Of a stretch of 46,187 nucleotides of DNA, positions 3,482 through 45,031 are shown one piece after another. The first letter of the stretch is position 1. Every line of letters starts with the position of its first letter. The stretch covers positions 1-46,187 of the IMG/VR virus record IMGVR_UViG_3300020045_002275. The stretch is one strand, 5' to 3'. The position numbers and the translations under genes were made by a program. The notes below the pieces were generated by a model that was not told the origin of the DNA, did no database searches, and worked only from the letters and a program-made list of their open reading frames with translations. Source of the stretch: a virus. Lineage: Duplodnaviria > Caudoviricetes.

Positions 3482-4336
3482 ATGCAAGAAACAGTTTATT
3501 ATATATATAAAATAACCAACAATATAAATGGTATGTTATATATAGGTCAACACTGCTTTAATACTAAAAAAGATTATTATTTTGCACATGGAATATCTCA
3601 TACTGGAAAAATATATGGAGGTCATCATACGTATTTTTGTAGAGCTGTAATAAAGCATGGATTTGAAAATTTTTCAAAAGAAATAATTGAATACTGTAAT
3701 AAGGATAATATTGATGAAAGAGAAATCTTTTATATAAAACATTACAATTCCAAAAATCCAGATGTTGGATATAATTTAACAGATGGTGGCGGTTCGTTAT
3801 CTGGATATAAAATGACAGACGAACACAAAGCTAAAATAGGATTAACCAACAGTATGTGCTCCGAAGAAACTAGAGAGAAACTTAGACTTGCAAATATAGG
3901 TAAAAGACACACTCCAGAATCTATAGAAAAAATGAGACTAATTAAAACTGGGATTAGGCGCTCGGGGGATGCAAAGAGAAAAATTTCAGAGTCAAATAAA
4001 GGTAGAGTTGTATCTATGGAAACTAGAAGAAAAATAGGTGATGCAAATAAAATATCTCTTCTTGGTAAAAAACTATCAGATGAAGTAAAAGAAAAATTAC
4101 GCATATCAAGTACGGGTAGAATTAAAAGTTCTGAAACCAGATTGAAATTATCTATTGCAAATATAGGTAAGAAAGCATCGGATGATGCTAAATTAAAAAT
4201 GTCAATTGCAAAACTTGGCAAAAAACAATCTGAAGAAACAAAATTAAAAAGATCAATAGCTTTAAGAGAATCTTGAGCTAGAAGAAAAGAAAACACATTA
4301 CAATCACAAGTTCAGATAAATAAAAGGTCTGAATAA
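3482..4336 (+). mobile_element. free-standing GIY-YIG homing endonuclease with NUMOD3-like repeats (ends at 4276 if TGA is a stop)
   Basis: YIYKITNNINGMLYIGQ, EREIFYI and GYNLTDGG motifs, followed by many S(E/D)ET(R/K)xKxS-type repeats. The frame continues past TGA 4274 to TAA 4334-4336. Confidence 0.9.
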
Positions 4337-5333: not shown

Positions 5334-5711
5334 ATGGAAGATAAACAAAAACTTCTGTTAGGTATTACAAACTGTCTGCTTGGTTCATACATTCGCATTA
5401 GAGAAATTCACTGAAACACGCGCAATCAAGCAACACATAACTTAACAAATACGCTTCTGCCGGAAATAATTGACTATATAGATTCTATCATAGAGTTAAT
5501 GTCTGGCGTAATAGAACGTCCTGGATACGATATACTAAAACCTATCATTCCATCAACGAAAGAACTTAAACCAATCTTACAAGCATTGGTTACTAAAATA
5601 GAGACATGCCAAGAATGTCTATCAGATCCTTCATTTAGGGGTATAAATAAAACATTAGATGATTTAATAGCGGACCTTAACCGCTGGTGTTACCTCGCAG
5701 ATAACTTCTAG
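5334..5711 (+). CDS. ferritin/Dps-like four-helix protein, 125 aa in code 4
   Basis: REIH[TGA]NTRNQATHNL gives the Dps-family HW motif when TGA 5412 is Trp. It also has D..IE and a C-terminal YL. Stop is TAG. Confidence 0.7.
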
Positions 5712-6033: not shown

Positions 6034-8157
6034 ATGGGAGGATATATAAACGGAAAAGTTGAGATTTGGTGCGGAGATTCGCCTCCGTTAAATTTGAATA
6101 CATTATGGCAAAAGAGAATTACAAATAATGGTATTCAATCTACTGTGATGTATGAATATAATTCCAATCTTAATATATGACAAGTTCATAATTTGGAAAA
6201 TATTGCCCAGAATACTGGCACGTCAGAATCCATGTTAATGTCACAGAAATCTATATCCGATTTATTTTCAAATATAAATACTGATATCTATAAAAAATCT
6301 ACAACATTGGATTCCGATCAATCAATATCGTATGCAGACAATCCAACGTCTTACCAATATACTCCACTATCAATAAAATTAAATAAGAAATATATTGGAG
6401 ATGTGTCTACAAATAAAAGATATCTTGCTTGTGGGTTTGATGATTTTAGATCTTCAGATGTATCATGAGTTTCACCATTATTTGAAAAATACGGATTTTC
6501 CGCAACTTTCAATAGAATAAACTCTTCACTTCCAACAAAAAATAATATACTGGACATTTATGATGTATTTTCAAAAAATCATGAATTTGGAGATCACTCA
6601 ATATTGCACGAAATGTTTATATATTATTCACCACTATGAAATGGACAGGACCCAGCATCACCTGAGGGGGCTCAAGTTGCTTTCCCGACCAACAATGATT
6701 TTCGACAAGATCGTGGTGATGGAAAAAATATATTTGGAAAAATACTTACAGATACAATTATAATAGGTTATTTGCAACCTGACTTTGGAGAAAAAACGTG
6801 ACAGGAATTATCTGATGCTGATTGCCAGTATTTAAGGAATTGGTATTCTGTTATTAAAAACGTTGATATAATAAATTATCTTGACTTACTTTCTAACGAG
6901 ATAATTGGGACAACTGGAAGTTCTATTGATAGTTGAAGTGGAACGGAGTATTCTGGTGGTATTTTCACTGGTTGTAAGACATCTTGCAATCATGAGATAT
7001 GAGAAAGAATTTGTTTAATACAAAAACATTACTTTAAAAAATACTTAGGAATAAACCAAGATATAACTGAATGGAGTCTTCCTGGCTCTAAAAATGCTTA
7101 TTTATACCTTGAGGATAATGGCCTATATTACTATGATCGTGAAAAAACTCAGCCAGCAAATGATTCTGCGGAATTTACATCTAGCATCATCTTAGACACT
7201 AACGGAGATGGAATAAATAGGTCGTGGAGATTTGTTTTAAGAAATAATGGGTATAGAGGATTCCACGACTGTTTGTATCCAGGGAGGCATGATGGAAATG
7301 TTTTTTCTGAGATGTCAAATCAATATATAATAAATTCGTCTTATTCAAGATTAGATGGGCTTGTATATCCCACTAAAAGAGATATAGATCAAAGTTATCC
7401 AATTAATTATAGCGAAGAGTATTTTGATGGCGTTGATGATGGCTTAAAGAAAATGTATGAAGATACTAGTATTAATGGGTTTAGGCACTCTATAGAGTCA
7501 ATTAGACAATCATGCGCTAGGGGCATTATTGCTGGTGGATTATGAGATAGTAGCGACTCGTATAGTGATCAAATATACTGAGAGAATATACTGAGGTTTT
7601 GTAGACTTGCAAACATAGAAGTTGTATCTAAAGCTGAGGCGTATGATATCGCATTTAATCGGCATGTATTGAATGGTAATTTATTATATAATCCAAACTT
7701 TGATAATATTGTAGAAAAAGTAATTCCAAACGCTAGTAATATACCAACAAATCCAGATGGATGGGATGGAAGTTGCTCTGTTCTAGATGACCAAAGCTCT
7801 CCCAATGGTATAAATAAAATATTGGTTTGTACTGGGGCTGCATACATGAAACACTTTGGAGTTCCAACTGGGAATCTAACACTTACTTTGTATGCGAGTG
7901 GCAATGGATATCTACAGATTTTTAAAATAAGAAATAAGCAGAATTCATATGAAGTGCCAGATGTCTCTGAAAACATTCACTATATGGAGGTTTCAAATCT
8001 TGAATTCCAAGAGTCTGTTATAAATTTCAATATTAAAAACGAGGATGCGATTACAAGTAGTAAATCTTTTGATGGTCTAGATAATAAAATCTGCGGAATA
8101 TATATATATGTTGGAGGGAATGTAAATATAACACAACCTAAATTAATACTAAACTAA
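6034..8157 (+). CDS. 707-aa protein with polysaccharide deacetylase (NodB/CE4)-like domain, probably virion-associated
   Basis: One frame with no TAA or TAG, and TGA at 6178, 6466, 6637, 6799, 6934, 7000, 7543 and 7579. Motifs: CGFDDF, LFEKYGFSATF, HEFGDHSILH. Confidence 0.75.
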
Positions 8158-8723
8158 TGGCATTAGAAAATAAAAAATTAAGTACATACGATGATTTACT
8201 ATCATCAAATATAGATACAACGACTAAACTTGTGGTGCTAACTGGAGCTACAAAAGTAAATGCTAATCTTCCAGTAACAAGCTTTGTTGAAGACTCATTG
8301 ACATCAAATAGCGTTGTTAAACCATTGTCAGCGGCTAAAGGTAAATCACTTCAAGATACTAAAGCTCCTATTGCTAACCCGACATTTACTGGAACTGTAA
8401 ATGGTATAACTAAAGCTATGGTTGGGCTAGGTAATGTAGATAATACTAGTGACGCAGGCAAACCTATATCAACAGCCACTCAGAATGCTTTAGATCTAAA
8501 ACTTAATGCAAGTTCATTTAATGATTTTATCACACTGCCTGTTTCTGGTGATATTGGAAAATTACTTACTGCAAATGACGATGGTACTGCATCATGAGGA
8601 AATACTATTAATACTCCATTAATTACAAACCTTCAGACATTTGCGGATAATACTGCCGCAGCAGCACTCGAAACCGGCACTATATATAAAACATCTACCG
8701 GTGTTTTAATGATTAAATACTAA
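8157..8723 (+). CDS. tail fibre-like protein, 188 aa in code 4
   Basis: DSLTSNSVVKPLSAAKGKSL and KAMVGLGNVDNTSDAGKPISTATQNALDLK are fibre motifs. The frame is read through TGA 8595 to TAA 8721. Confidence 0.8.
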
Positions 8724-8771
8724 CTATTTTATTATCAATCTATATATTTTTTGAAAAAACACTCAAAAATG

Positions 8772-8803
8772 TTTGGTAGATTGAATAATTTAAATTACCT
8801 TTG
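8772..8803 (+). promoter_or_regulatory. Bacteroidota primary-sigma promoter
   Basis: TTTG (8772-8775), 20-nt spacer, TACCTTTG (8796-8803). This matches the -33/-7 TTTG/TAnnTTTG consensus and is conserved in phage B. Confidence 0.85.
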
Positions 8804-8842
8804 CCTCAATTTATAATTTAAACGTAAATTATAGGTTGGGGC
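8803..8842 (+). promoter_or_regulatory. 18-bp stem-loop overlapping the transcription start region
   Basis: GCCTCAATTTATAATTTA-AACG-TAAATTATAGGTTGGGGC, with three G-U pairs. A near-identical copy lies at 44962-45001. Confidence 0.7.
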
Positions 8843-8878
8843 ATTGTTGTAAATGAGTATTAATTTAAAATAAAATAC

Positions 8879-9832
8879 ATGACTAAAGAAGAGGTTATTG
8901 AGGTATTTAAAGAAAAGAGTTATCTATTAGAAATGGGAGCTTTTAAGATTTCAAAACAATTAAAGACCGATGTAAATATCATCAGAGAAGCACGAGCTAT
9001 TGTTCGTAAAAACATTAAAGAGCTTGGAACTACATATCATCCAAAAGAAGTGGCATTTAAACATGACAAACAAAAGATTTTATTCTTAGATATCGAGACA
9101 GCTCCACTTCGTGCATTTGTGTGGTCAAGATGGAAGCAAAATGTTGGTTTGAGTCAGACTATTTCTGAGTGGTTTATGATTTCTTGGAGTTGTAAATGGT
9201 TGAATGATGATTATGTTTATTCAGATGTATTAAGTCCAAGAGAAGCTGTTGGTGAAGATGATAAGCGTATATGTAATTCATTATGGTATATCCTTAATGA
9301 AGCCGATACCGTAGTCACTCATAATGGAATTTCATTTGACCATAAAAAGATTAATACTAGATTCTTGTTGAATGATTTAATGCCAACAAAACCATTTAGA
9401 ATTATTGATACTCTTAGAGTTATTAAAGATAATTTTGCATTTAGTTCAAATAAATTAGATAATTTATTAATTCAATTTAATCTTCCAAGAAAATTACACA
9501 CAAACTTTGAATTATGGAGTGATTGTCTTGCTGGGAGTGTTGAAGCCTTAACCGAGATGGAAACTTATAATAAGAATGATGTAGTCACTCTTGAAAAAGC
9601 TTTTGACAAACTTAAACCTTGGATTAAGAATTTTCCAAATTATGTATTGTATAATGAACTGTCAGATGCAATGGCGTGTCCAACATGTGGTGACGTTCAT
9701 TTAAATGATATTGGATATTACACTACTGGTGTGTCTAAATACAAAATGTATAGATGTAGTAATTGCAAATCTATATCAAAATTAAGAAAGTCTGAGAAGA
9801 CCAAGGTTTTACTTACAAACAATATAAGATAA
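8879..9832 (+). CDS. RNase H-like DEDD 3'-5' exonuclease with C-terminal Zn ribbon
   Basis: FLDIET, HNGISFD, IDTL and YNKNDV motifs, plus CPTC...CSNC. All 8 Trp codons are TGG. Confidence 0.85.
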   Translation: MTKEEVIEVFKEKSYLLEMGAFKISKQLKTDVNIIREARAIVRKNIKELGTTYHPKEVAFKHDKQKILFLDIETAPLRAFVWSRWKQNVGLSQTISEWFMISWSCKWLNDDYVYSDVLSPREAVGEDDKRICNSLWYILNEADTVVTHNGISFDHKKINTRFLLNDLMPTKPFRIIDTLRVIKDNFAFSSNKLDNLLIQFNLPRKLHTNFELWSDCLAGSVEALTEMETYNKNDVVTLEKAFDKLKPWIKNFPNYVLYNELSDAMACPTCGDVHLNDIGYYTTGVSKYKMYRCSNCKSISKLRKSEKTKVLLTNNIR

Positions 9833-10602
9833 TGAGAAGCTATCGCGAACTTGTGTTTAGTGTGCTTGATTCTGTTAAAATATTTAGCGATGATTCGGTT
9901 TGAGAAACCGACTATATTGCTAGCGTTTTAAATAAGTATCGAGGACTACTATTCACACAAAAATATAAAGGCAAGAAGGTAGAAATACCTTTTGCCTACT
10001 ATCAGAGATTGAATGTATATTTTGATACCACATATGGTGATGGACAAATATATCAATCAGTTAAACAACTTCCAAACATCCTTGACACTACAAATTTATG
10101 GCAATATACATTTGTTAGTAATGATGGAATGCGAAGTGATAATTTAAATTTTATTAATCCACAAAGATTCAAAAATGTTGGATATAATAAATGATTAAGA
10201 AGTCAAGTCTGCATTACAATAGACTTAGATAATCATATGTATGCTAAAAGTCCTGGAAGTAATATTAGTAATGCTGTACAATTCGTAGGAGAACCCGATG
10301 TAATTACATCTGAGACTAAATATACATTGATATCAGAAACTGGCTTAAACCAACTCGCAGCAGAGAATCTAGTAGACTCATATGTTTATTATGATACTAT
10401 ACTTGATAATCCAATAGAAGGATATAGATTTAATGACGATAATACATTAGATGTATTGGACTTTATATTCCCTTGTGAAGAATCTTTAATTCAACCGATC
10501 ATAGATTTATGTATCAAAGAAATTGCAGCTATCAATGGAATTCCTAGAGATGCCGCCAATAACGCATCAGACGATTTAAGTTTACCTAAACAACAAAATT
10601 AA
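9832..10602 (+). CDS. tail ring protein, 256 aa in code 4
   Basis: MRSYRELVFSVLD..SDDS N-terminus and LDFIFPCEESLIQPII C-terminus. TGA at 9901 and 10192. Orthologue at 43194-43961. Confidence 0.75.
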
Positions 10603-11180
10603 TGGAGCAGACATTCGAGGAGTATTTAAAAGAAGCCAAGAATGTTCATGGCGATAGAAAGCATAAAATAACTGGAAGTCAGAATACAATAGCTGGCTTC
10701 CATTATTACAGAAAGATTAGACCAAAGGAAACTAAATTTACTCTTAAAGATAAAGAATATCTCTCCATTATAAGAGAAATGAATAACTTAGTTGCTGATT
10801 ATCTTGTTGAGAATAAGTCAATTAGCCTTCCATCTGGATTTGGAAAATTAGAGATTGTTAAGTACGAAACTAAATCGTGAATAGATGACGATGGTAAATT
10901 TATATCAAGCAAGATAGTTGATATGCATAATACATTTAAGTTATGGCATGAAGACGAAGAAGCTAGATTAAATAAAACCAAGGTTAGATTTGATGAAGAT
11001 TACATATTTAGAATCAAATATCCACAAAAAGGTAGGATGTATAAATATAATGGATATTTCTCAATGCAATTTAATAGAGAATTAAGGCATAAACTTTCCA
11101 GGTCAATTAAGAATGATAATTATGATACATATATAAAACCATCTAGAAGCGCATGGCTAAAGCAAAATGGACGAACCTAA
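10602..11180 (+). CDS. HU/IHF-like DNA-binding protein, 192 aa in code 4
   Basis: SISLPSGFGKLEI motif. TGA 10878 aligns with Trp in the uninterrupted 192-aa orthologue at 42610-43188. Confidence 0.75.
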
Positions 11181-11872
11181 GAATCGTCGCAGATAAAATA
11201 TTAAGAGATCCAATATTCATTGGATTAAATTTTGAAACTATCGTTGATTATTTCATAGACTTTATAACTATTGTTGGAGTCCCGGAATTATTTGACGAGA
11301 AGTTTACTAATGCAGAAATTCCAATTACGAACTATAGGGCTATATTACCTGATGATTTCTTGGAGGAGATTACAGTGCAAATAGACCACAAAGTTGCTAG
11401 AACAGCTACTGATACTTATTTTGGAAATTACCAAGAGTATCAGGACACTAATCCTAACGAATACTTTCCAGATAAGCGTTCAGAGCCATCCTATAAAATT
11501 AAAGGTGGTTATATCTACCTGTCCAAGAAGGAAGGTAATTTGCTTTTAAAATATAAATGTATAGCAACTGAAACCGATGTAACATCTGATGATTATGGAA
11601 TTCCATTAATGCCAGACGATCCAGTATTTATTCTTGCTCTACAATCATATATAGAAGTTCAATTCTTAAAGATGTTATTTAGAGCTGGTAAAATTAATAA
11701 CCAAGTCTTACAGATGGCGCAACAAGATTACGCATGGAATGTAGGACGATACGAGACTCATAGTAGACGTTTAACTTACGGTGATATGGAAACATTATCT
11801 CGTCAGTTTAAATCAATCCTGACACGCAATAACGATTTTAAAACACGTTTTAAACACTTGGGTTCTAGGTAG
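11153..11872 (+). CDS. tail ring / tubular protein (P22 gp4-like adaptor class)
   Basis: NYRAILPDDF, YKIKGGYIY and QQDYAWNVG motifs. Lies directly upstream of the muzzle gene. Confidence 0.75.
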   Translation: MAKAKWTNLRIVADKILRDPIFIGLNFETIVDYFIDFITIVGVPELFDEKFTNAEIPITNYRAILPDDFLEEITVQIDHKVARTATDTYFGNYQEYQDTNPNEYFPDKRSEPSYKIKGGYIYLSKKEGNLLLKYKCIATETDVTSDDYGIPLMPDDPVFILALQSYIEVQFLKMLFRAGKINNQVLQMAQQDYAWNVGRYETHSRRLTYGDMETLSRQFKSILTRNNDFKTRFKHLGSR

Positions 11873-11874
11873 TT

Positions 11875-12249
11875 ATGCAAATCAAATCAACCACATACAA
11901 GGTGAAAGGGATGAATCGTGATTTGAGCTATTCCGCATTCAATCCTGAGTTTTCATGACATAATAAAAATATACGACTTACAGCAAGAGATAGTAATGAC
12001 TTATTGAGCGTTACAAACGAGAAGGGTAATTTATCCATCTCATTCAATGACTTAACGCCAGAAAGAATATATACATACTCATATGCATCTGCATTTGAAG
12101 ATTACATAGGTGAGATAATAAATGTATCATACACATATCAATCCTCATTTGGGAGATATGTGTACGAGTTGAGTGATGGTCCAGCAGCTCCTTCATATAC
12201 ATACATCACTGGATTTACAAATTATATTAACGAATTAATAGAAATTTAA
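11875..12249 (+). CDS. N-terminal fragment of the muzzle/tail stabilisation protein fused to a degenerate Tyr-rich repeat tail
   Basis: KGMNRDLSYSAFNPEFS[W]HNKNIRLTARDSNDLLSVTNEKG resembles the usual N-terminus of crAss muzzle proteins. TGA at 11956, stop TAA. Confidence 0.7.
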
Positions 12250-12825: not shown

Positions 12826-15800
12826 ATGTCAAATATAATCGGTAAAACTATTGGAAGTTGTGTTATTAATGAGTACTTAGTATTATTCACTACGGACAGT
12901 TCTTCCGATAGAATATATAAAATAAAGCCACCAAATGATAGTGGTGTTTCAGATATTGTAAAGCTGGTTGAATTAAACCTTGGATTTAATGAGAGTAATT
13001 TAATTCAAACTCTTCCATTCTACGAGAATGCGTCTATTCAAAAAGTTTATTGGGTTGATGGATTAAATCAACCTAGAGTAATTAATATAGCTATTGATGA
13101 TGGTCGTATATATGAATATGTAGATACATCATTTGATTTTGTTCAAAATCTTGAATTAAACGAAACCTCTCAGATAACAAAATTATATGATACTGGATTA
13201 TTTAAATCTGGTGTTATACAATATGGAGCAACCTACTTCAATAAGAATGGAGCTGAATCTAATTTGTTTTGGATTAGCGACATTAATTATATCTCAATGG
13301 ATGATAGGGCTGGTAAGGTCGATGAGATTGTCAGGAATGCATTTAAAATCAATCTAAGTAATCTTGACGAAAAGTTTGACTACGTTAGAATTTATTCTAT
13401 ATATAGAACTTCAGTAGATGCAACACCAGAACTAAAGAGTGTTGTTGATTTAAAAATCCCAACCAGTAAATCAATAACATATGTTGATGGAGGTACTAGT
13501 GGATCTATAATATCTACGGACTTTTTATTGTATGTTGGTGGCGAAGAGTTAGTACCGCAATGTATATCTCAAAAAAACAATACGTTGTTTCTTGGAAATA
13601 TAACACTCCCTGATAATGTTATTATTCCACCAACACTACAAACTTATGGAGATGAAATTATAGCTACTGGAGTTCCAGTACATAATTCAATATTTTCATG
13701 AGAAACTAACGAGGTTGATTTTGAAGGGTTATCTCAACCGACTGGAAACTCAATGTATCCGTATATACCTTTTAAATCAAATGTAAGACACTTTAAGTTT
13801 GATGAGACATATAGACTTGGATTACAAGGGCAATTTCCTAATGGCAAATGATCTAATCCTATATGGCTTGGATACGACAATAAGGTTGATAAAAGATATT
13901 CTACTCGTTATGGTTCTACTGGTCAAGTAAAACTATCTTATGTAACTGGAAAGTATTCTATAGCTCAAAATCTAGTTCAATGGATGTCAAAACCAAAATC
14001 TGATGGAGGTCTTGGATTTTCTAAGATTAGACCAGTGATGGTTCCACTTAGTTATTCTGATAGAACAATTATTGCCCAGGGCATTGTAAATAACACACTA
14101 GGCAATATGAGCAATAGGTTTGGTACTAATAAATCAAATCTACCATTTTCTTATCCAGACTATTTATTTAGAACCAATGGAAAGCGTAAGACTACATATC
14201 AAGATTTAGATGCATATGATGGCCAATACGCTCACTTTGATTTATTAAAACTAAACAATAATCTTCGTCCATCAGGAAGCGATCCTAATGAATGAATTGA
14301 AATAATGGGCAATGGTGACACTTGGGATTATCATGATGTAAATCACAATGGAACACCTCCACCTGGAACTGCAAATAATCATACTACTCCATTTGGAGGA
14401 GATTTCGATAAGGATTTCTTTTTTGTTGATAGAAATATAGTAAACTTCTGAAGTCCAGATTTAATTAATAATACAGACCAATTAAATAGCTATGTAAAAA
14501 GCATTCAATCAGTAGGTCTTTACGGATTTGCATTTCAAACAGCTTTAAATTCTAAGTTTGAAATAGATTTTGGTGACAGACCAGATACGTCTGGTAGTGA
14601 CCCATTAAGTGATAATAAAGGAAATTATTACTCTAACGAAGACTATATTGGTGTTAGTAATTTCAAAAGACTATTCCCATACTTTGAAGGAACTCCAAGT
14701 GATGGTGGAAATAAAGAGCATAGAAGTTGGCATAATATTCCAATATGAAGTCCAGAAAAATATAAAATACATTTGCCATCAAGGGATGGCTCTAATACTG
14801 GTGTCGATTACCAGGACGAGACCATTGAGATTAATTTTACTAAACTAAATAAATCTGGATATAATTACTTTGGAATAAATAGGACGTTGAATTTACCTAG
14901 CTCAAGTGAATCCATTTATAAGTATAATATAAATAATCCGTATTTAGTTTTTAATGATTCAACAATATTCTATGAAAGTAATTTTGTTGACAATACCTTA
15001 AATAATGGCAATATACTATATTCTAAGAGTGTTGAAAAAAACTATCCATCTAACACATACTTCAATGCATTTAAATATGGTACTGGCGTGTGGGATTTGA
15101 ATGCTGGTTTAAAATACTCCGATAATCTAAAATGGTATGAATACAATGGTCCACCACAAGATCCTATTGATGAACCAATAAATTCTGGATTAGCTATAAA
15201 GTATAATACCAATACGCACGCTATATTTTCATTTGGATTAAAGAATGGATTATTTAGTTGTATGCCTAGGCTTAGAAATATATCGCTAATTGGGACTTCT
15301 ACTTATGAAGACTTTTCAAATCCAACAGACACCGACTGATATAGAAGTGGATCTGCTAATTTTAGAACAGATATTATAGGTAGAAGTTATTTAAATGATA
15401 TAATGTTAGATTCGGATAAGACCAGTATCAATACACTACCAATATTTGATTTATATAGTAATGTAACAAGCGATACTAGGTATGGTGGATTAACTGCTGA
15501 TGCATTATATAGCAATACGTGGATACCGTGTGGAGATTCCATTAGAATAAATGATAGTGCGGTAGATTTAAAATATACCATTGGCGATACATTTATAACT
15601 AGATTTGATATGCTCAGGGTCTTTCCAAATGACATACTACAAATACCGCAGCATACTGAAATAGTTTCATTTATATGTGAATCATTTACAAATTCTGATG
15701 GAAGAAGTGATGTAAATCGTTATAACACTGATAGCTCATTGATGACAACTGGAAATTATGGATTATTCAATAATGTATATTCTCAGAAGAATAATTACTT

Positions 15801-16938
15801 TAACTACAATATATTAGACCCATTATTGTTTAACACAACTAGATTCAGCAATTCGATTGTATGGTCTAAAACCAAAGTGTCTGGCTCTATAAATGACACA
15901 TGAACTGATATCAATATGTTAAGTTCTATAGATTTGGATGGAGTTTATGGAGAGGTATCTTCAATAAACCTATTTAATAACGATTTATACGCATTTCAAC
16001 CGAAGGGTGTGGCTAGACTACTCTTTAATGAAAGAGTTCAACAGCAAGCTTCAGATGGAGTTTCAGTGGAGTTGACTAATGGTTATAAAGTTCCTGAATA
16101 TAGATATCTAACAAATCAATATGGTTGTAATAATAAGTGGTCAATAATTGAAGGTAAGCAAGGTATTTATTTTATAGACTATATTAATAAATCGTTGATA
16201 TCTATTGGTGATGGAATTAGAGACTTAGGATTATCTCTTGGATTTAAATCATGGTTTAATGAGAATACTGATGGTAGAAATTATACGCTATCTTACGATA
16301 GAATTAATAATGATTTATATATTCACGATGAAACTGATTGTTTAAATTATTCTGAAACTCTTGGAAGTTTTGTGTCATTCTTTGATTATGTAAATGTTCC
16401 ACAGATGAAAAACGTTTGAGATAATTTTATATCACTGAGTTATAGCGATATTCAAGGTAATACACAACAACTCTTATCAGAGAGTAGCTTAAATACACTT
16501 GGTAGTGAATCTGGCGATAATATTGTATCTGAGAATTCAGACTTGAATAGAACGTCACTTTGGATCCACAATAAGGGGGACTACAATATATTCTATGGTA
16601 ATCAAAAACCGTTCAGTGTTGAGTATTTACTTAATCCAGATCCATTAAACGACAAGGTATTTAATACATTCGAGTATAGACTTAATGACCAATTGATTGA
16701 TTGGAATAACGTAGTAGTATCTAATTGATATCAGGTTGGTAAATTAAACTCAGGTCAGTTTACGGCTAATATGAAGCGTAAGTTTAATGTCAATAGAGTT
16801 CAACTACCAAGACAGAACAATACTTTAAATAGAATACGTTCAACGTGGTCTAGATTAAAAGTATCACACGAAGTAACAGAAGTTAATAGCAATAATAAGT
16901 TTGATATGCAAGACTTGAATATCACCTATACTATTTAA
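12826..16938 (+). CDS. muzzle / tail stabilisation protein (P22 gp10-like class), main body, 1370 aa in code 4
   Basis: One frame with 9 TGAs (13699, 13849, 14293, 14449, 14746, 15337, 15901, 16417, 16726). Motifs: QKVYWVDGLNQPRVIN, QKNNTLFLGN, YGCNNKWSI, KRKFN. Confidence 0.85.
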
Positions 16939-16993: not shown

Positions 16994-17025
16994 CTTGTAT
17001 AATCCAAATACTTATTGTAACTTTG
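16994..17025 (+). promoter_or_regulatory. Bacteroidota-type promoter for the cargo operon
   Basis: CTTG, 20-nt spacer, TAACTTTG (17018-17025). Conserved at 36885-36916. Confidence 0.8.
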
Positions 17026-18819: not shown

Positions 18820-20541
18820 ATGCCAATAAGTGCTTATGACAAAATAGATTACGCAGCATACAAGCCAATTTCATTTCAAGAGATGTGAGCTCCTGCGCAA
18901 CAACTTCGACAACAACATGATCAATTACAAGAAGAATACGCTCAGCAGGAACAGCAAGGTGGATTATCACTATTAGGTATAGACCCAGTTAGAGATAAAG
19001 CAGCTTATGATATTCAGCAAAACTTTATAATTAAAACCAAAGAAGCTGCTGACCAGTTAGCTACTAAAGGATTTATTGATTCTGGTAGACGTAGAGGCTT
19101 AATGGAAATTAAATCTTTATATACTAATCAAGTAGTTCCATTACAAAATCAATTAAAGATACGTCAAGAAAAAGCTGATATGCTTTATAAGATGAAGTTA
19201 CAGAATCCAACATATAGGGCGACTATGGATCCAAATTCAGTTTCATTAACCGATGGACTAAAAGATCCTAATGCTTTTAATTTTGATGGAGTTAGTGGAA
19301 ACGACCTATTCTCATCGGTATCTAAAAAAGCGGAGCAACTAAGCAGAGTAATTTCTCAAGATCATCCTAAATTAATATCGAGTGGTATATTTGCAAATTA
19401 CTTTACGGCATTGCAAAATGGAGCTACATTAGGTCAAATTGATAAAGCTATGAAGAGTGATGGTAAGTATAATCCACAAGATGTTGATAAGATGACTCAA
19501 ATGCTACACGGTATAGTTGGATCTACACTGGATGAGTATGGAGTTAAATCTAAATTTGCTAATAACGAGGCAATACAACAAGAGTTATGGAATACTGCTG
19601 CTCAGGGATTGTATTCCGCTGCTGGCACTAAACAGTTTGGTCAAATGCAGGATGATATGGCTTTATATAGGAAGAAAAAGGCCGAAGATGCACCTCCACT
19701 AGAACCTCCTGGGAAGCAGTTTTTACAATATGACCCATCATTTGAAAAGCAAGACTTAAAGAAAATTGATGATAATAAAAATAAATTATTAAATTCAATT
19801 TCGGACATAGACAGGGATATAGCTCACAGACAGACGCTTGTTAATTTTGGTGGAACCAAAGAAGATATAAGAACCTTAAATATTCTAAAAGAAAGAAAGA
19901 AGTCATTATTGGTTGAACACAATAATTTGCAGTCTGAATATTTAAACTTTGCAAAAGCATCTGGAATTAAAATTCCAAAAAGCAGTAACGGTAAAATGGC
20001 TAAAAGTGATTATGAGTCATTAATATCTTTGGTTTCAGAGAAAATGAAAGAAGACTATAAGTCTGCAAATAAAACAAGATATTTCTTCAATACAAAGCCT
20101 GAGACTCAACAAGAGTTTTCTTCAGCATTGAGCTCTATGGATAAAGTTGTTGACATTAATGGAGATGAACTGTCTAAATCTGATATACTGGAAAATGGCA
20201 AGCTTAAATCACCAGGGGTTTTAAAGTTTGGAACTAATGGAATGTATTTACAAATTGTCGATAAAAATAACAACTCAAAAACAATACCGTGGAATCCAGA
20301 ACATTTAGGTAATCCTGCAATGTCTTCAGATTATACGTTATTGACAAATATAAAAGACGACTCTAAAAATCTGGGTCAAAAAGATTTTGAAGTTAAATAC
20401 GGAATTCCATTAAATAAGTCTAAGACTGTAATTGAGAATCTAACAACAAAAATATCAAACGGACTAAACAGCCAGTACACACAAACAAAAACTGCTGATA
20501 TAGACCCTGGATATCAACAATATCAATATGGACAACAATAA
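18820..20541 (+). CDS. virion cargo protein, 573 aa in code 4
   Basis: ATG 18820 follows the upstream stop, with TGA 18886 at codon 23. Orthologue at 33100-34968. Confidence 0.75.
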
Positions 20542-23500
20542 CGAAAATCAAGACTATCTACCAGAAGATGGTGAATCACTAAAAGGTTTGGCTGGAATTT
20601 CCGAAAGTTTAAAAAACAAAAAGTATAAGCCATGACTTCAGGACGCTTATTCGTATTCAAGTCAAAATTTAAATAGTCCGTGAACTCAAAAACTTTCAAA
20701 TGTTGTTGGTGGGACTGATTATGGTAATAGTACATACGATGATAAAATAACTTCAATAAATCAGTTAAACGACCTTGAAGATACTCGTGCAAACATACAG
20801 CCATTTATTGATAAGCTAGGTGCTGGTATTGGAGCTTTTGCAGGTAAAACTGTAACCGCTACAGTTGGTGGATTAGGGACTTTATTCTATGGAGTTCCAA
20901 ATGCAATAGCTGAAGGTAGGTTTGCTGGCATATTTGACAATGACTTCAATAAAGCTCTTGAAAAAGCTAACGAAGGCATTGATGACACATTTAAAGTATA
21001 TGCATCGGAAGCCGAAAGAAATGGAAGTTTCTGAGATCAATCATTAGGTTCTGCTCACTGGTGGACTAAATCATTACTGGGTGATGGAATGTCATTTACT
21101 GCTGGAGCTGTATTGTCGGCTTATGCAATGGGTGGTATTGGTGGGCTTTTAAGTAAATCAGCTAATGCATTAAAACTAAGTTCTGCTGCGTTTACAGGAG
21201 CTGAAACCATAGGGGCTTTAAGAACTGCCGTTAAAATAGACCAAGCAATAGGTGGATTAACCAAAACTATTGGAATGGGCACTAAATTAGCCGTTGGTTC
21301 AATGTATGAGGGCGGTGTCGAAGCCAATGATTTTATTAAACAATCATTAGGTAACTATAAGCAACAATACGCTGAATTAAATAACGGTAAAGAACCCACA
21401 GAGGAAGAATTAGATGAATATAAATTAAAGATACTTCCAACAGCAAATACTTTATTTGCAGCTAATGTAGCATTGGTAGGAGCATCTAATCTTGCTGTAC
21501 TTCCAGGAATTTTCGGCAAAGGCGTTAATGAAACTATCAAGTCTGCAAGAAAAAATATAGTAATGCAGACTGTCGATGACGTTATTAAGCCGGTACTCAA
21601 AGATGAAACTTTAACTGGATTTCAAAAAGGTGCTAAACTTGCATTTCGAGGATTAAAGCCAATAGCCTCCGAAGGACTAATGGAGGAGGGTGGTCAAAAC
21701 TTCGCCAAGAACATGGCATTAGATTACGTTGACAAACATTACAATCCAGATGCAGCAAAGAATACTTATGACTTAATGAACTCTTTTGGAAATGCATTAA
21801 ATCAAGCTTATGGAACTGTTGATGGATGAAAGGAAATTATGGCTGGTATGGTTATTGGTGGATTTGGTTCACCTAACTTAAAAGCTATTGGTAGATTTGA
21901 AACTTCAGAAGATGGTAAGAAAAGTTGGAATCCACTTAAATTAGATTCAGAAAAGTCATGGTGGACTGGTGGTATTATTGGACAATTTCAAGACCACCAC
22001 GAGTCTAATAAACGTGCTAAAGAGATAATTGATGATTATAATGCTCAAGATAAGGATGCAGCATTTGATTACTTTAAAAATAATCTATCACAAAATCAAG
22101 GTATAGCTGGACAGATAAGTGAAATCAACCACCAGAATGCATTAGGTAAAGTTATGGATGAAGCAGCTAGAGCTGGTGATTTCCATACAGCTAAAAATGC
22201 AGAGCAAGATAGATTTCATTCATATGTAAAATCAAGAGTTGATGCTGGATATTATGAAACTTTAAATGATGAGTTAATAAATCCTATTGAAAAGTTATCA
22301 GATGAAGAATTTGGTGAGACTTTTGGATATACTAATATGTCTAAAGAAGATTTAGCCAAGCGTAAACAAAAGACTGTATCGGAAGCTAAACAATCAATTA
22401 AAGACTCTGTAGATGCAATTAATTTTGTTGATAGTAGAATGTCATTTAATTTAGGAACTGAAGAAGGTCGTAATCATAGAAATATGTTAATATACGCATT
22501 GACAACTAATAAGTCCGTTGGAAAACGTATAGACCAATTAAATTCATTTATCAAAGAAGCTACTAAAGATAAATTAAAATATACTCACAATGACGAACAA
22601 TTTGATACTATTGAAAGTGTATTTCAAAATAAGATTAATCAACTAGAAGAAAGTAAGAGTGGCAAATCTGCTGAAGAAATTTCTCAGATAGATAAAAATA
22701 TCGCCAAGCAGCAGAAAGAGATTGATGCAATTAATTATGGCAGGAATCAATCCAAGAGTGCTGAGAGATTAGTTACTGAAGGATTAACTTCACCTAAATC
22801 TGCAATAGAAGCCAGAGAATTTGCTAATCAGATATTAAACGTTTACGATGATAATAAAGATATATCTCCAGAGGCTGTTGAGAATAGAGAGAAGCTAGAA
22901 TCTGCACTACAAGATTTACCGAAGTTATTAAGGCGTAAGGAGGAAGCTTTTGAGTTATATTCAACCGCAAAAAATCCTAAAACTTGGGAAAACTTCATTA
23001 AGACTGAAAGAATTCAAGAAGCTTGGAGTAAACTTAGAGATGAGGGTGCTCAAAAGATAGCTGATGCTCAAAACGAAGAACATGCCCAGGCTGAGACTTT
23101 AGTTAATAATGGCACTGACCCAGAAACCATACATAATGTTACTGGTGCTGATATGTCAACTATTGAAAAGATTTTAAATAATAAAAAGTCAGTTCAGGAT
23201 GCCAAAATATCTAAATCACTAGATGAGTTGTTACAATCAATCAATTCTCAAGGCGATCATAAATTTGAAAGCATTCAAGACTTATTAGATACACTCGAAG
23301 AAACTATTGAAGATGATGAATCTTCAGAGCAAGAGCAAGATGCTGCACAAATTCTAGCTGATAGAATTAACGAATTAATTGAATCTGCAAGACAACCAAT
23401 TGCACCAGTAGATGAATCAGTTCCATCAAAAGATGGATTACTTGACAAGAACCAAGATATAGCTCCGGTTGGACAAAGTGATATTGATGAAACTAATGAT

Positions 23501-24544
23501 ATTAACGATAAGGCTAATCAAGACTTAAAGAGTGATGATAAAACTACTTCTACAAACGTTGAAAGTGATTTATTGATAGATGCATCTAATCATATTGCAT
23601 GGAATAATGTATCTTATGATAATAAAACTGGAAAGTTTATTTATTCTGGGATTAATCCAAAAGCAAGTAAAATATTACAGGATTATACTAAAATAAAAGT
23701 TGGTGATAAAGTTACATTCAAAGTTAATCCAACAGCAGAATTCCCAGCAGAAGATTTAGGACATATCAAAATTGATGTATATATTAATGGAGAGCCAGTA
23801 GGACAAATTCATACAACTGACTATATTAATCCAAATAGAGTCGTTGATACAGATGGCAATCTTGAGAGAAATATTACTGAATTAAAAGACTTACGAAGTG
23901 CAATTCTATCTGGTCAAATCAAAGACTCTCAAATTGAAAAAGTTGGTAATGGTAGATTAATTACTGCAAGAGAATTTGGTGGCAATAAAACTGATAACAT
24001 TCCAACAGTTCAAGCACTACCAGATAATAGTGTATTTATAACTGTAGTTAATAGTGGTAGTATTGCAACCAAACCTAAGAATTCAATTATAATTAATGAA
24101 GGTAAGATTGCAACTGGTCAAGGTAATAATTTCAGAAATGGAATGTTTGTATTACTCCCAATAAATCAATCAACCGGTGGAACTAATGCAACTAAATACA
24201 TTGCAGCTCCATTAAGCCCAATGACTCTAAATGAATCTCAAGCGCAAACACTATCAACTTTAATTGAGTTGTTCCTTAGGAATCAATCTAGCCAGATAGA
24301 TGGTGAAACTAAAACTATATTTGACACTATTGCAAAATCAATGCAAGGCAAGATGGGTTATAGGGATGAAATTTCTGACCAAGAAATGAATTTTAACCCA
24401 CAATCTTTAAATGGACTTAGAAATATCATTAAGTTGTTTACTTACGATAGAGTTAGTTTAAATGATAATTTAAATGAGGCTGGTGAAGCTAGATCTGATA
24501 AAAAGATATTTGGTATTAATGGAAATGAAGATGTCTTTATATAA
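20528..24544 (+). CDS. very large virion cargo protein (RNA polymerase-associated cluster), 3'-truncated near 24520
   Basis: One frame with TGA at 20633, 20681, 21032 and 21827. Has a SEGLMEEGGQ motif and Gly/Ala-rich hydrophobic segments. Homology to 27899-33094 stops abruptly at KKIFGIN. Confidence 0.75.
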
Positions 24545-27500
24545 TTTCTAACACCAATAGATTGCTTATTTTTAGTCATAACCTGCCTGTTATTGGCATA
24601 TATCGGTTTAGTTGGCTGTAGGATAATCTCCCACTCTCTGTCAGTAAAGTCAATATCCTTATCCTCTGGCTTATCCTTAATTTTTCTTTTTAGTTGATAA
24701 TACTCTTTCTCAGTAATGTTTTTATTGCCAAAATTAAATAATGTATCAATATGAAAGTCTAGCGATGTCCATGATTGAGCATCTGATGAATTGATATCTC
24801 CATAAGCTTTAATAGCAGCTTTTTCAGCAGCAGTTCTATTTTGCTCATTCTTACGATAAATCTTTTCGATATAATCCATAGAAAGGGATTTCATCTTTCT
24901 ATCTCTAGATACAGTTACTTTAATAGTTTGTTTATCGCCAAAATCAGCTTCATATCCTGGAGCTAAATCAGCAGCCAAGCGTTTACCTAAGTTATCAAAA
25001 GTTGGCTTAATTAGATTGTATGCATCAACTATTGTGTGGTCAGCCTTATTGAAGAAGTTAGTTTCAAATTCGCCATGAACCCCACTATCTCTTTTTGGAC
25101 CCTTGCCAAAGTCACCTTTAAAGTATTGAGCATAATCGCCATGAAACATTTGAGCTACATTGGCATTATGTATAAAGTAGTTAATAGCAAAATCAGCAGC
25201 TACAGCATCAGATAATTGTTTTTGTGATAGATTACCGCCATACCAACCTGAAACGTTTACAGCATGAGTTTTATCAATGAATTGTAATGTCTTTTCGCCA
25301 TCAACAGCACCAATCTTATTATCTTTAAATTCTTGAATTTGCTTAGCAATCATTAAATTTAAAGAGTTTTTGATTGTAGACTTGATTAATTCAAGGTTTT
25401 CCTGAGTTAATTCATCTTCAGTCTTTAAAACTCTATTACCATTTTGAGCTTTTTTAAATATACCTTGAATGATATTTAACTCTGGGACTGTATAAAAATA
25501 TTTAGCACCATCATTATATCCTTCAATATTTATTTTTGTAGAATAGTTGTTAGTTTCTTTCTGAACTTCCCACATTCTATTCATTTCGGATTTCACAACT
25601 CTGTCATAAATAAAACTTACAGTTGACTCATCAATACTACCATCGCGATAAATAATATTATCTCTGATAATACTTTGAATATTTATCATATTAGTCTTAT
25701 CGGACATTGTTGGATAAAATAACTTACCAACACGTCTGGCAGTAACTCCAGTACCAACTTTTGAATCATTATTGTGTAATAATCCAAGTTTAAGAGCTAT
25801 TATTTCCTGTGGAGATAAATCAGTCAATCCTCTATCGGAAGCTTTACCATTGGCTTGTTTTAAAGCATCTAGCGATAGATATCCGAATTCAAACGCTTCT
25901 GAAAAAGCTAATTGTTCTGGGGTTGGATTGTCACTTTTAGCTAATAATAATTGATTTAACCAATAGGAGTTATTCGCAAATACATCGGTCTTTAAATCAT
26001 CTAACAGTTTAAAGTTAGACTCAACACCAGTTCTATATCCACGAGTCAATTCATACATTCTATCAATAATAAACTTATCATTAGTATATGAAAATACAGT
26101 TTTATTTCCAGAATTATGGGAATTACTATATAGATGCTTAGAGTTTTTAGCCTCTAAATCAGCCATAGCCTTTACTGAACCGGCATTGAACACATTTAAA
26201 CTATCATCGGTACCAACTTCTTTGGTTCCGTCAGTAGCAGCTATTTTAATTAGTACGTTATATATATTTGTTATCGGAGAAAACTTATCGCTTTTTAAGA
26301 ATAATTGATTTACACCAGTCTTTTTAAATTTACGACTACCATACTGGAATCCATCATTAAGAATTCGTTTAATAGTGGTGTATGATAATTTCATTCCAAT
26401 AGAATTTAATGCATCAAACAGTTGGCTTTCAGTTACGTTTTGATTGCTTTTAAATAGTTCTTCAAACTTAGTTATAACTTCATTTGCATATTCAGGATTA
26501 AAGGTACGTTTTCCAAAAAAATCAATATCTACTAAATTAGATTTCTCTAATCGTTGATTTCAATCAGTAAGAATAACTCGTTGTCTTGAATTAGCATTAT
26601 CACCCATCACTTTTAATTCACTTCCAGCAAAACTATTAATCCATTGCACGAATGACATATCAATATAATGTTTGTTCATTGCTGTAACAAACTGTTTGAT
26701 GAGTGTCATGTTATTTGGAAGACCAGTTTCATTGTTGATTGCTTTAGCTTCATTTAGTTTTGCAATTAAATTCTGAACCCACTTATAATCATTGAATTCT
26801 TTAAGTCTTTCGATCATTCCATAAATATCAGGGTCACTTCCAGCTAAAAATGCATTTAATGTGTTATAAACTGTATCAAAGTTTTCAAATAATGACTCTC
26901 CAGTTAAGTAATGACTATCACCGTTTTCAAGTGTTGATAAGAATAACTTTAATTTACCAGACAATCCAGCTTTACTATCTAAAGTTACAGCGTAATCGCC
27001 AGAATAATTACCTTGAGACTTATCCGCTCCATCCAAATCTATTTCATCATTATTAGCTTTAACCGAATCTTCGTCTTGAATAGTAGTATCATCTAATTTC
27101 TCAGAATCAATACCATTTTTAAATGATAATCCAGAGCGTCTTTTAAGTGCATTGAATACCATTTGTTCAAGATTATCCCAATTTTCAAGATAACTATTAG
27201 TGTGATTTACACCAACTTGAGAGTTATTAGCTTCGTATTCATCTTTGATATCTAAGAATGTATTATAATAAGTATCTAATTCATCTTGGATATCCTGCTT
27301 TGTTAGATTTTCACCAGCAATTACACGACGAGCAATCTTCTCTACAATAGTATCAACGGTTTGATTAACTTTTTCAGATGACACAATATTGTCAGTTGAC
27401 ATTAAAGCAAATCCCAACATTCCCTCTCCAACAAAGTTTAAAGCTTCTGTAGTTTTTTTGTCAAAATCAGCCATAAAAGACTCATTCTGTTTGATAGGAT

Positions 27501-43193: not shown

Positions 43194-43961
43194 TTATTGT
43201 TTTGGTAGACTAATATCATCAGTCGCATTATTGGTTACATCCCTGTGGATTCCATTGATTGCGGCAATTTCTTTGACACACAAATCTATAATTGGCTGAA
43301 TTAACGACTCTTCACATGGAAATGTAAAGTCTAATACATCTAGTGTATCATTATCATTAAATTTATATCCATCTATTGGATTATCCAATATAGTGTAATA
43401 ATATATACATGAATCCGAAAAACCATCTGATACCAATTGATACAATATATCTTCAGATATAAGTGAATATTCTAATTCAGGTGTTGTTGTGTTTGTTTCT
43501 CCTATTAATGGAATTGAGTTATTGGAATTTATCCCAAGATTTTTAGCATACATTTTATTATCTAAGTCTATTGTTACATAAACTTGGTTTCTAATTCATT
43601 TATTATATCCAATTGTTTTAAATCTTTGTGGATTAATAAAATTCAAATTATCACTTTTCATTCCATCGTTACTAACAAATGTATATTGTCATAGATTTGT
43701 TACATCAAGTATGTTTGGAAGTTGTTTTATTGATTGATATATTTCACCATCTTTGTATGACGTATCGAAATATACATTCAATCTTTGATAGTAGGCAAAA
43801 GGTATTTCTACCTTTTTGCCTTTATATTTTTGTGTGAATAGTAACGAACGCATCTTGTTCGCAATATAGATAACATGCTCTACTTCAAGCAAAGCATCAT
43901 CACTTATTGTCTTAGTACTGTCAAGAATTGCATACACAATTTCCCTGTAGGTGTGTGCCAT
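43194..43961 (-). CDS. tail ring protein, 255 aa in code 4
   Basis: TGA at 43689 and 43596. Orthologue of 9832-10602. Confidence 0.75.
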
Positions 43962-43962
43962 T

Positions 43963-44925
43963 TTATCTTATATTATTTGTAATAGTTATTTTAGTATTTT
44001 CAGCCTTACGACGTCTTGATATATTTCCACAATCACCACATCTATATAACTGATATCTATTAGTAATGGTGGTGTATATTCCATCTTTTAATAAATGTTT
44101 ACCACCACATGTTGGACAAACATCAGTATCATCCACGTTATTATACAAAACATAATTTGGAAAGTTTTTAATCCATGGTTTTAAGCGTGAGAATGCTCTT
44201 TCAAGGCTTATGACATCCCAATCATTATATTCCGACATTCTAGCCAGGGCTATTGAATCGCCGGCCATGCAATCTTTCCACAACTTAAAGTTAGTATCAA
44301 GTTTTCTATCTAATCCAAATTGAATTAACAAATTATCGAGTTTATTTGAACTAAATGCAAAATTTTCTTTAACAACCTTCAGGGTATCTATGATGCGAAA
44401 AGGACGTGTGGGCGGTAATCCATTAAGAATGAAACGAGTATTAATTTTCTTATGGTCAAATTTAATTCCATTATGTGTAACAACACAATCGGAAATATTT
44501 AGAACGTTCCATAAATCTAACATTATTCTTGAATCATCTTCGTTTTTGGCTTCATCTGATGTGAGAACTCCATTATACATCTTATCTTCTCCTCCAAACT
44601 TTGCCGACCAACTCAATATAAACCATTCAGATATAGTTTGGTCTAGTCCAAGATTTTGATTCCATCTAGTCCACCAATAGCCTATCATGGGCGCAGTCTC
44701 AACGTCTAAGAATAAGACTTTCAATGAGTTAACTGTTGGTTGATTAAACGCTACTTCTTTTGGGTGGTATGTTGTTCCAAATTCCTTAATGTTTTTACGA
44801 ACAATAGACCGCGCTTCTCTAATAATATCTATATCTGTTTTTAACTGAAATCCAATCTTTTTTGCACCCATTAAAAGTAAATATGGTTTTTCTTTAAATA
44901 CCTCAATAACCTCTTCTTTAGTCAT
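43963..44925 (-). CDS. RNase H-like DEDD exonuclease with Zn ribbon
   Basis: FLDVET, HNGIKFD and YNDWDV motifs, plus CPTC...CGDC. All 9 Trp codons are TGG. Confidence 0.85.
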   Translation of the reverse strand: MTKEEVIEVFKEKPYLLLMGAKKIGFQLKTDIDIIREARSIVRKNIKEFGTTYHPKEVAFNQPTVNSLKVLFLDVETAPMIGYWWTRWNQNLGLDQTISEWFILSWSAKFGGEDKMYNGVLTSDEAKNEDDSRIMLDLWNVLNISDCVVTHNGIKFDHKKINTRFILNGLPPTRPFRIIDTLKVVKENFAFSSNKLDNLLIQFGLDRKLDTNFKLWKDCMAGDSIALARMSEYNDWDVISLERAFSRLKPWIKNFPNYVLYNNVDDTDVCPTCGGKHLLKDGIYTTITNRYQLYRCGDCGNISRRRKAENTKITITNNIR

Positions 44926-44961: not shown

Positions 44962-45031
44962 GCCTCAACCTATAATTTACGTTTAAATTATAAATTGAGG
45001 CAAAGGTAATATAAATAATTGGAATATCAAA
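44962..45031 (-). promoter_or_regulatory. Bacteroidota-type promoter plus conserved 18-bp stem-loop
   Basis: On the minus strand: TTTG, 19-nt spacer, TACCTTTG, overlapping GCCTCAATTTATAATTTA-AACG-TAAATTATAGGTTGAGGC. Confidence 0.8.

Follow-up and report, generated by a model that had tools for sequence, protein, structure and literature searches.

A promoter-proximal exonuclease gene avoids the reassigned TGA codon in recoded crAss-like phages: a likely gene-level variant of the dual code

Introduction

Recoding of late genes and the presence of suppressor tRNAs have been described in crAss-like phages (Yutin et al., 2021, PMC7886860; Mgcod, 10.1101/2022.06.29.495998). A few non-gut crAss-like phages without a polymerase have been reported (PMC7886860), and in an RNA-seq study of crAss001 the structural half of the genome was classed as late (PMC8375218). 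Bias at the level of single genes has been reported by Borges et al. (10.1101/2021.08.26.457843): integrases avoid and lysis genes prefer the recoded codon, which was read as translational timing. In phi14:2, middle promoters precede g070, g075, g108, and g110 and are read by the host polymerase (10.1101/2020.03.07.982082). The question touched by these studies is whether stop-codon recoding serves regulation in phages or is drift that a suppressor makes tolerable; published support for regulatory recoding is mostly at the level of blocks.

In this study, an exonuclease gene that stands at the head of a tail gene unit was compared among recoded and standard-code relatives. The window, i.e., the whole stretch of DNA that was analyzed (46,187 nt), spans the entire record IMGVR_UViG_3300020045_002275.

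Materials and Methods

Relatives were gathered by scans with the exonuclease and with the neighboring ring genes, and 164 sequences were screened. One of the two exonuclease search patterns contained a Trp, giving a bias towards TGG; L001, G002, G004, and G005 were recovered again via neighboring genes, and L081 and G003 (L006) were found only via the exonuclease. A further ring-gene scan brought in six relatives of G003 with the standard code and no additional recoded one, and a single-protein scan of viral contigs gave no match. The scored set comprised the TGA-recoded sequences with the gene in the slot seen here, behind the promoter and ahead of the tail ring genes (phages A and B of the window, L001, G002, G003, G004, G005, and L081); L103 was excluded as a near-copy of G003. 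Two near-identical contigs, L211 and L210, were counted as one event. The second tree was built with FastTree. The numbering of phi14:2 genes differs once between preprint and RefSeq (IHF, gp074 versus g073), and g074 is named ring 2 by synteny only.

Results

Composition of the window

The window resolves into long genes under translation table 4, and table 11 breaks the same genes. It is a chimeric contig in which two TGA-recoded crAss-like structural regions are wrongly joined, phage A (plus strand) head-to-head to phage B (minus strand), at about 24520 (Table 1). The cargo protein of A aligns to the copy in B only up to residue 1393 of 1731, and the polymerase gene of B aligns to that of G002 only to 1114 of 1492. 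At a second misjoin (about 1922) unrelated DNA is fused into a crAss gene: the DNA from 1 to about 1921 is unrelated and TGA-free, and homology to relatives begins at 1922. The open reading frames at 1349-2779, 20528-24544, and 24442-27891 are artefacts of fusion or truncation. The likeness of A to B within aligned blocks is about 65-80%. The two are related genomes and therefore not independent trials, a caution already voiced in the initial annotation.

Pfam matches in the window include CrAss_Ring_1, CrAss_Ring_2, CrAss_Ring_3_4, crAss_AuxCP, and crAss_MUZ. The ring, auxiliary capsid, and muzzle genes follow the order of crAss001, which is that of a Steigviridae-like structural module (Crassvirales); the best named matches of ring 1 are Steigviridae (25-39%), and the window is without terminase and major capsid genes. 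No tRNA was found in the window fragment, and no tRNA, synthetase, or release factor gene adjoins the exonuclease within it. A Dps/ferritin-like gene (DUF5856, phrog_858) lies in the capsid block at 5334-5711, a GIY-YIG/NUMOD3 homing endonuclease at 3482-4336, and a T5orf172 endonuclease at 45074-46090, directly upstream of the promoter of the B exonuclease.

Table 1. Positions of the features discussed (coordinates of the window unless a contig is named)
Feature	Position	Strand	Description
Bacteroidetes-type promoter (A)	8772..8803	+	TTTG-N20-TACCTTTG; -33 TTTG, -7 TACCTTTG
Hairpin, 19 bp	8802..8843	+	Overlaps promoter end; -24.5 kcal/mol, z -5.7
Exonuclease A	8879..9832	+	317 aa; PF13482, phrog_403; 0 TGA, 8 TGG; N-terminal helical domain, DEDDy core D71 E73 D154 Y230 D234, four-Cys zinc ribbon
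Tail ring protein 2 of A	9832..10602	+	PF25702; TGA at codons 24 and 121; start overlaps exonuclease stop
IHF-like gene of A	10602..11180	+	TGA at codon 93; named by synteny with crAss001 gp42
Tail ring protein 1 of A	11153..11872	+	PF24228; 0 TGA of 2 Trp
Muzzle protein of A	12826..16938	+	PF25731; 9 TGA of 24 Trp
Second promoter, same type	16994..17025	+	Ahead of cargo protein 1, which comes first and carries TGA (control)
Misjoin of phages A and B	24442..24544		Near 24520; truncated genes on either flank
Tail ring protein 2 of B	43194..43961	-	TGA at codons 91 and 122
Exonuclease B	43963..44925	-	320 aa; 66% identical to A; 0 TGA, 9 TGG
Promoter of B exonuclease unit	45001..45031	-	TTTG-N19-TACCTTTG; same hairpin then follows
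Exonuclease and CUA tRNA loci	L007:10001-11097; L013:2488-3577; L099:9236-10326; L124:16-829		Portal upstream in 3 of 4

Use of TGA in the exonuclease and in neighboring genes

The TGA and TGG counts of the initial annotation were all reproduced, namely TGA at 0 of 8 and 0 of 9 Trp in the two exonucleases, at 8 of 14 in the gene at 6034-8157, and at 9 of 24 in the A muzzle. The recount also agrees that the next gene has two TGAs in both phages (the first at codon 24 in A) and that the shorter genes 11153 (0/2) and 42610 (0/3) are TGA-free; gene 41454 (0/1) is TGA-free likewise. Against the late-gene background of the same genome (22/58 in A, 23/60 in B) the P values of the two exonucleases were 0.022 and 0.013, which is weak once the approximately 17 genes of each phage are considered. 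Among the 40 of 979 variant places listed for contigs of four DNA runs over 8700-11900, none falls on the third position of an exonuclease Trp codon and one is a TGA-to-TGG variant at codon 121 of ring 2.

Comparison of the per-gene TGA share across relatives, a check proposed in the initial annotation, bears out the pattern. Over the eight recoded sequences the exonuclease in the slot has one TGA in 56 Trp codons, versus 125 of 243 in the four genes that follow (ring 2, 14/25; IHF-like, 5/21; ring 1, 4/16; muzzle, 102/181). The share was 22/35 in cargo 1, 19/35 in the terminase, and 10/26 in the portal. In addition to the values for A and B, the per-genome P was 0.0034 for L001, 0.047 for G002, 0.0056 for G003, 0.08 for G004, 0.68 for G005, and 0.039 for L081, the last resting on a background of 3 codons. 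The combined P over five lineages picked one each (A, L001, G002, G003, and G005, with L001 taken over B and G005 over G004) was 7.6e-5. The sole TGA is found in G005 (1 of 4 Trp) at Trp110, upstream of two catalytic motifs.

Other A/G third positions of the gene are close to saturation. Third positions of Lys, Glu, and Gln codons differ at 16 of 47 sites between the exonucleases of A and L081, at 14 of 36 between A and B, and at 16 of 40 between B and L001, and the Trp residues shared by these pairs are encoded by TGG in all cases (8/8, 7/7, and 6/6, respectively); in the muzzle gene, Trp codons differ between A and B at 8 of 16 sites. Time has thus sufficed for TGA to arise, and we infer selection against TGA in the exonuclease of this slot. 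Conservation of the Trp residues was rejected as the cause, since conserved Trp residues of the muzzle (55/93) and of ring 2 (7/15) have become TGA and the same conserved exonuclease Trp residues are encoded by TGA in L211.

Some late genes of the recoded sequences were also found to be poor in TGA: the major capsid gene has 0 of 32 Trp as TGA, the auxiliary capsid gene 1 of 16, and the Dps-like gene 1 of 12. Avoidance alone, therefore, does not show early need. The major capsid genes of L001, G002-G005, and L209 avoid the recoded codon in both codes (0/32 Trp; 0/18 Gln), which suggests leaky suppression; in L211 the major capsid gene has TGA at 1 of 6 Trp. The share of C-ending codons was 0.19 of 715 in the exonuclease, 0.17-0.22 in ring, muzzle, terminase, and portal genes, and 0.33 in the major capsid gene. 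The exonuclease is without high-expression codon bias by this measure, which is a blunt one (the scaffold gene also gives 0.19).

Promoter and hairpin ahead of the exonuclease

The initial annotation had placed the exonuclease first behind a host-type promoter, and this stands in both phages: the two promoters match the Bacteroidetes consensus TTTG/TANNTTTG (PMC6847099), and later genes of the unit carry TGA. A scan for sigma-70 promoters was uninformative (10 matches versus 8.9 expected). From the consensus, we infer a transcription start near 8808. An RNA that begins there would lack the base of the hairpin stem, and its folding energy is -9.9 versus -24.5 kcal/mol for the whole hairpin. It is thus likely that the hairpin ends read-through from upstream, that transcription is restarted by the promoter, and that the hairpin is mostly lost in promoter-born RNA. 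Compensatory changes were seen in 4 of the 19 pairs across six sequences.

The promoter also precedes the exonuclease in standard-code relatives, where both promoter and unit are present, and it is older than the code. In crAss001 the promoter lies directly ahead of gp40 and there is no exonuclease gene; in phi14:2 a similar sequence lies ahead of g075, a metallophosphoesterase gene in the same slot. The same type of promoter precedes the TGA-rich cargo 1 gene and the tRNA(UCA) of G002. A polarity rule, by which the first gene behind the promoter avoids TGA, was rejected: cargo 1 follows the same promoter in five sequences with TGA at 22 of 35 Trp, and the portal gene does so with 7 of 12 (G003) and 5 of 18 (L211). 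First place in the unit therefore does not explain the avoidance. In some relatives the promoter is found within a long palindrome and in others just ahead of a terminator-like hairpin (L002:4190-4267, L003:9925-10003, L183:9975-10083, L006:9915-10003, L015:6570-6657); attenuation or binding of a factor is possible at these loci.

Dual code and suppressor tRNAs

TGA is predicted to be read as Trp in the late genes of A, B, and the recoded relatives, in which in-frame TGA is present at conserved Trp positions. In G002 (complete, 90821 bases), genes on the opposite strand have TGA at 0 of 105 Trp, and TGA serves as the stop codon in 3 of 33 early genes. The early arms of G003-G005 have 4-6 TGA versus 82-112 TGG; these counts are uncurated and may include read-through stops. 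G002 encodes a tRNA(UCA) with A1-U72 and G73, which we take to confer Trp identity. This tRNA lies 130 nt behind a promoter of the same type and approximately 23 kb from the exonuclease. Because of the shared promoter type, the delay between nuclease and suppressor may be short, and the two are likely switched on together. In G003 (complete, 103544 bases) no UCA tRNA was found among the seven tRNAs detected, and the late arm is heavily TGA-recoded; ring 1 of this phage is 82% identical to that of standard-code relatives. L003 is a standard-code phage nested among TGA-recoded ones; recoding would then have been reversed or have arisen more than once. Neither PolA nor PolB was matched in G002 and G004, in agreement with the non-gut phages mentioned above; PolA is present in G003, cr111_1, and DAC15.

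Exonuclease genes in other positions and other codes

L211 and L210 represent a separate TGA-recoded lineage, and L211 encodes a tRNA(UCA). Of the 8 Trp in each of their exonucleases, 7 (L211) and 6 (L210) are encoded by TGA, with the catalytic residues intact, a share that exceeds the background of their own terminase and portal genes (P about 0.002 and 0.003). Here the gene is the fourth after the portal, preceded by a spanin gene (phrog_739) and followed by a DUF5675 gene, and no promoter match of its own was found. This shows that recoding does not oblige the exonuclease to be free of TGA and that its codon content follows its position. With so many TGA codons, the nuclease of L211 and L210 depends on the code and cannot start the switch there.

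TAG-recoded relatives were also considered. In L209 (L097 and L208 are identical) the exonuclease in the same slot has TAG at 0 of 8 Gln versus 22 of 50 in the muzzle, and the major capsid gene has 0 of 18. In L100, a contig that does not include the promoter region, the exonuclease in the slot has TAG at 4 of 9 Gln, and in L016, where the gene is located elsewhere, at 2 of 4. In a TAG-recoded crAss-like lineage, a tRNA with a CUA anticodon lies approximately 110-130 nt behind the exonuclease in four loci (Table 1). The exonucleases of these loci have TAG at 0 of 22 Gln; the TAG share of the portal gene in this lineage is 3-10 of 62-68, so low that 0 TAG in the 6-7 Gln of each exonuclease is expected. 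A Pistol ribozyme match just over the gathering score was found at L099:3671-3745 (minus strand).

Family, fold, and core exchange of the exonuclease

The exonuclease belongs to PF13482 (RNase_H_2) and phrog_403; 1610 records match it, and it is common in standard-code phages. D71, E73, D154, Y230, D234, and the four Cys are invariant in 105 sequences, and seven of the eight Trp of the A protein are at least 90% conserved. No solved relative was found by sequence. The structure model (pLDDT 90) has a DnaQ-like fold with the proofreading domains of family B polymerases as best matches (Z 17.0 to 5mdn, rmsd 2.6, 164 aligned), and a Foldseek search gave a similar result. RNase T ranked 35 (Z 12.2) and RNase D ranked 44 (Z 11.4). 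Fold alone shows no function; the model makes DNA the likelier substrate. The DEDDy motif also occurs in RNase D, an enzyme that carries HRDC domains. No HRDC domain was found in the exonuclease, for which Pfam gives RNase_H_2 only and which ends in the four-Cys ribbon. A search without a positive control gave no exonuclease match in crAss001, phi14:2, IAS, cr112_1, and cr126_1 (0/5).

Three types of catalytic core are found among A, B, L001, L161, and L162, four of which (A, B, L161, and L162) share 90-92% identity in ring 1. G004 and G005 align to A only in the promoter and the first approximately 60 codons, and their core comes from another clade; in the comparison of 8879-9061 with these two, the exchange of the core falls at about codon 60, and the promoter, hairpin, and N-terminal helical domain are retained. 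A, B, L001, L081, and G002 have cores that form one group (support 97/89). A tRNA lies within 3 kb of the exonuclease in 25 of 164 sequences, a count that includes duplicates and has no control gene, and in DAC15 the gene is inside a tRNA array. The tRNA link is still a lead, but most of the proximity would be accounted for equally well by a place that both genes share where the late arm begins.

Discussion

Gene by gene, the recoded codon likely governs the timing or the level of production. The reading that we prefer, with moderate confidence, is that the exonuclease of this slot, a predicted DNA 3'-5' exonuclease, avoids TGA as a middle-stage protein needed before the TGA-reading tRNA is available, and that the tail genes further along the same predicted transcript wait. 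Host RNA polymerase would start near 8808, with the hairpin stopping read-through from upstream. The nuclease could then be made at once, as host ribosomes read all of its codons, and translation of ring 2, the IHF-like protein, and the muzzle would be ended at TGA by the host release factor as long as the suppressor has not accumulated. The nuclease would be a passenger of the code switch and not its cause; its likely job would be in phage DNA metabolism (trimming of replication or recombination ends, or DNA recycling). The timing reading is favored by the difference between 1/56 and 125/243, by the effect of position in L211 and L210, by the near saturation of other A/G sites next to unchanged Trp codons, by the lack of high-expression codon bias, by the TAG-free exonuclease of L209 (0/8 Gln), and by the middle promoter of phi14:2 in the same slot. 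It is weakened by the late capsid genes that avoid TGA, by Trp110 of G005, by the 4 of 9 TAG in L100, and by the promoter type of the tRNA, and further by core swapping, the nested standard-code L003, and the late class of the crAss001 structural half. It had been proposed in the initial annotation that one transcript yields the nuclease before recoding is active and the tail proteins only afterwards. Part of this proposal stands, in that the avoidance is specific to the gene here and the unit is led by a promoter and followed by TGA-bearing genes; the timing itself is rivaled by dose, as the capsid genes avoid TGA too. A wider scheme is possible, though we consider it doubtful: the reassigned stop may be a gene-by-gene timer inside single transcripts, with a mobile nuclease near 0% TGA when it is needed before suppression and about 80% when it is silent until lysis, which in one TAG lineage travels with, and may mature, the suppressor tRNA.

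The pattern could also reflect dose: if TGA is read poorly throughout infection, proteins needed in quantity would lose it, and with 8-9 Trp the loss of yield would multiply. We regard this as unlikely by itself, yet worth serious weight, given the low TGA counts of the major capsid (0/32), auxiliary capsid (1/16), and Dps-like (1/12) genes, the absence of TAG from the 18 Gln codons of the L209 major capsid gene, and the promoter type that is common to tRNA and nuclease. Against it stand the nuclease's lack of the capsid gene's codon bias, the intact L211 homolog with 7 of 8 Trp as TGA, and the low copy number usual for enzymes. Timing and dose may act together. Frequent replacement of the catalytic core from standard-code phages, which would reset TGA to zero, is an improbable explanation. 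Cores are indeed exchanged, as seen in the three types found despite the ring 1 identity of 90-92%, in the short alignment of G004 and G005 to A, and in the nesting of L003. However, the pairs with the same core (A-L081, B-L001) are both recoded and near saturation at other A/G sites, the tree places the cores of A, B, L001, L081, and G002 in one group, and the sole TGA sits in the most clearly imported core, that of G005.

The initial annotation had further suggested that the nuclease helps to establish the recoded state through RNA or tRNA processing. Such an RNase, maturing the suppressor tRNA or degrading host RNA, would fit the DEDDy motif, the tRNAs within 3 kb in 25 of 164 sequences (duplicates included, no control gene), the array in DAC15, and the CUA tRNAs within about 130 nt of TAG-free genes (0/22) in four loci. 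The comparison did not support the suggestion, and we consider it very improbable: most exonuclease Trp codons are TGA in L211 (7/8) and L210 (6/8), promoter and gene are present in standard-code relatives and the family is common there (1610 records), the DNA proofreading domains (Z 17.0) score above RNase T (12.2) and RNase D (11.4), the absence of TAG is expected at the low portal share (3-10 of 62-68), and the tRNA of G002 is about 23 kb distant. Chance, or conservation of ancient Trp residues, is hardly credible and largely refuted. The P values of single genomes are only 0.01-0.05 and seven of eight Trp are at least 90% conserved, but conserved Trp residues have become TGA in the muzzle (55/93), ring 2 (7/15), and the L211 exonuclease, and the pattern replicates across lineages.

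One enzyme family that passes from 1/56 to 13/16 recoded codons with genomic position provides a natural experiment, and the unit of promoter, nuclease, and ring 2 is a small reporter able to separate timing from dose. The pattern also marks this conserved, uncharacterised phage exonuclease as a protein that is required early or in quantity. The literature searches showed nothing on the codon use of this gene, and the word exonuclease is absent from the main texts of PMC7886860 and 10.1101/2021.08.26.457843.

Among known systems, the stand-alone PolB-like phage exonucleases (PHROG 403, RNase_H_2) share with the predicted enzyme the family, catalytic residues, zinc ribbon, and fold; the exonuclease of the window differs in its place at the head of a tail unit. 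In phi14:2 the P075 slot (10.1101/2020.03.07.982082) has a similar promoter and an enzyme of nucleic-acid type, followed by a virion protein, IHF, tail tube, and muzzle, as here; there, however, the slot is occupied by a metallophosphoesterase, and the phage gave no match to the exonuclease. The code-change module of Jade phages (10.1101/2021.08.26.457843) likewise has standard-code genes upstream of recoded ones. In contrast to that module, no tRNA, synthetase, or release factor lies beside the gene of the window, present evidence gives the nuclease no necessary part in the switch, and the exonuclease is not always in standard code (TGA at 7/8 Trp in L211, 6/8 in L210, 1/4 in G005). The biases of Borges et al. 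are similar in that avoidance and enrichment occur per gene, and the TGA-rich exonuclease copy follows a spanin gene; they differ from the present case, which involves a lytic crAss-like phage, a nuclease, and a single family with both extremes. There is also a resemblance to the dual-code crAss-like phages. As in the kin of A and B, TGA encodes Trp in the late arm, the early arm is compatible with the standard code, and a suppressor tRNA lies at the start of the late arm (G002). In those phages whole blocks switch with the coding strand, whereas here a single non-structural gene is exempt inside a recoded block and its status flips with position. From its sequence, the locus is likely a gene-level variant of the known early/late dual-code scheme, with timing as the likely role.
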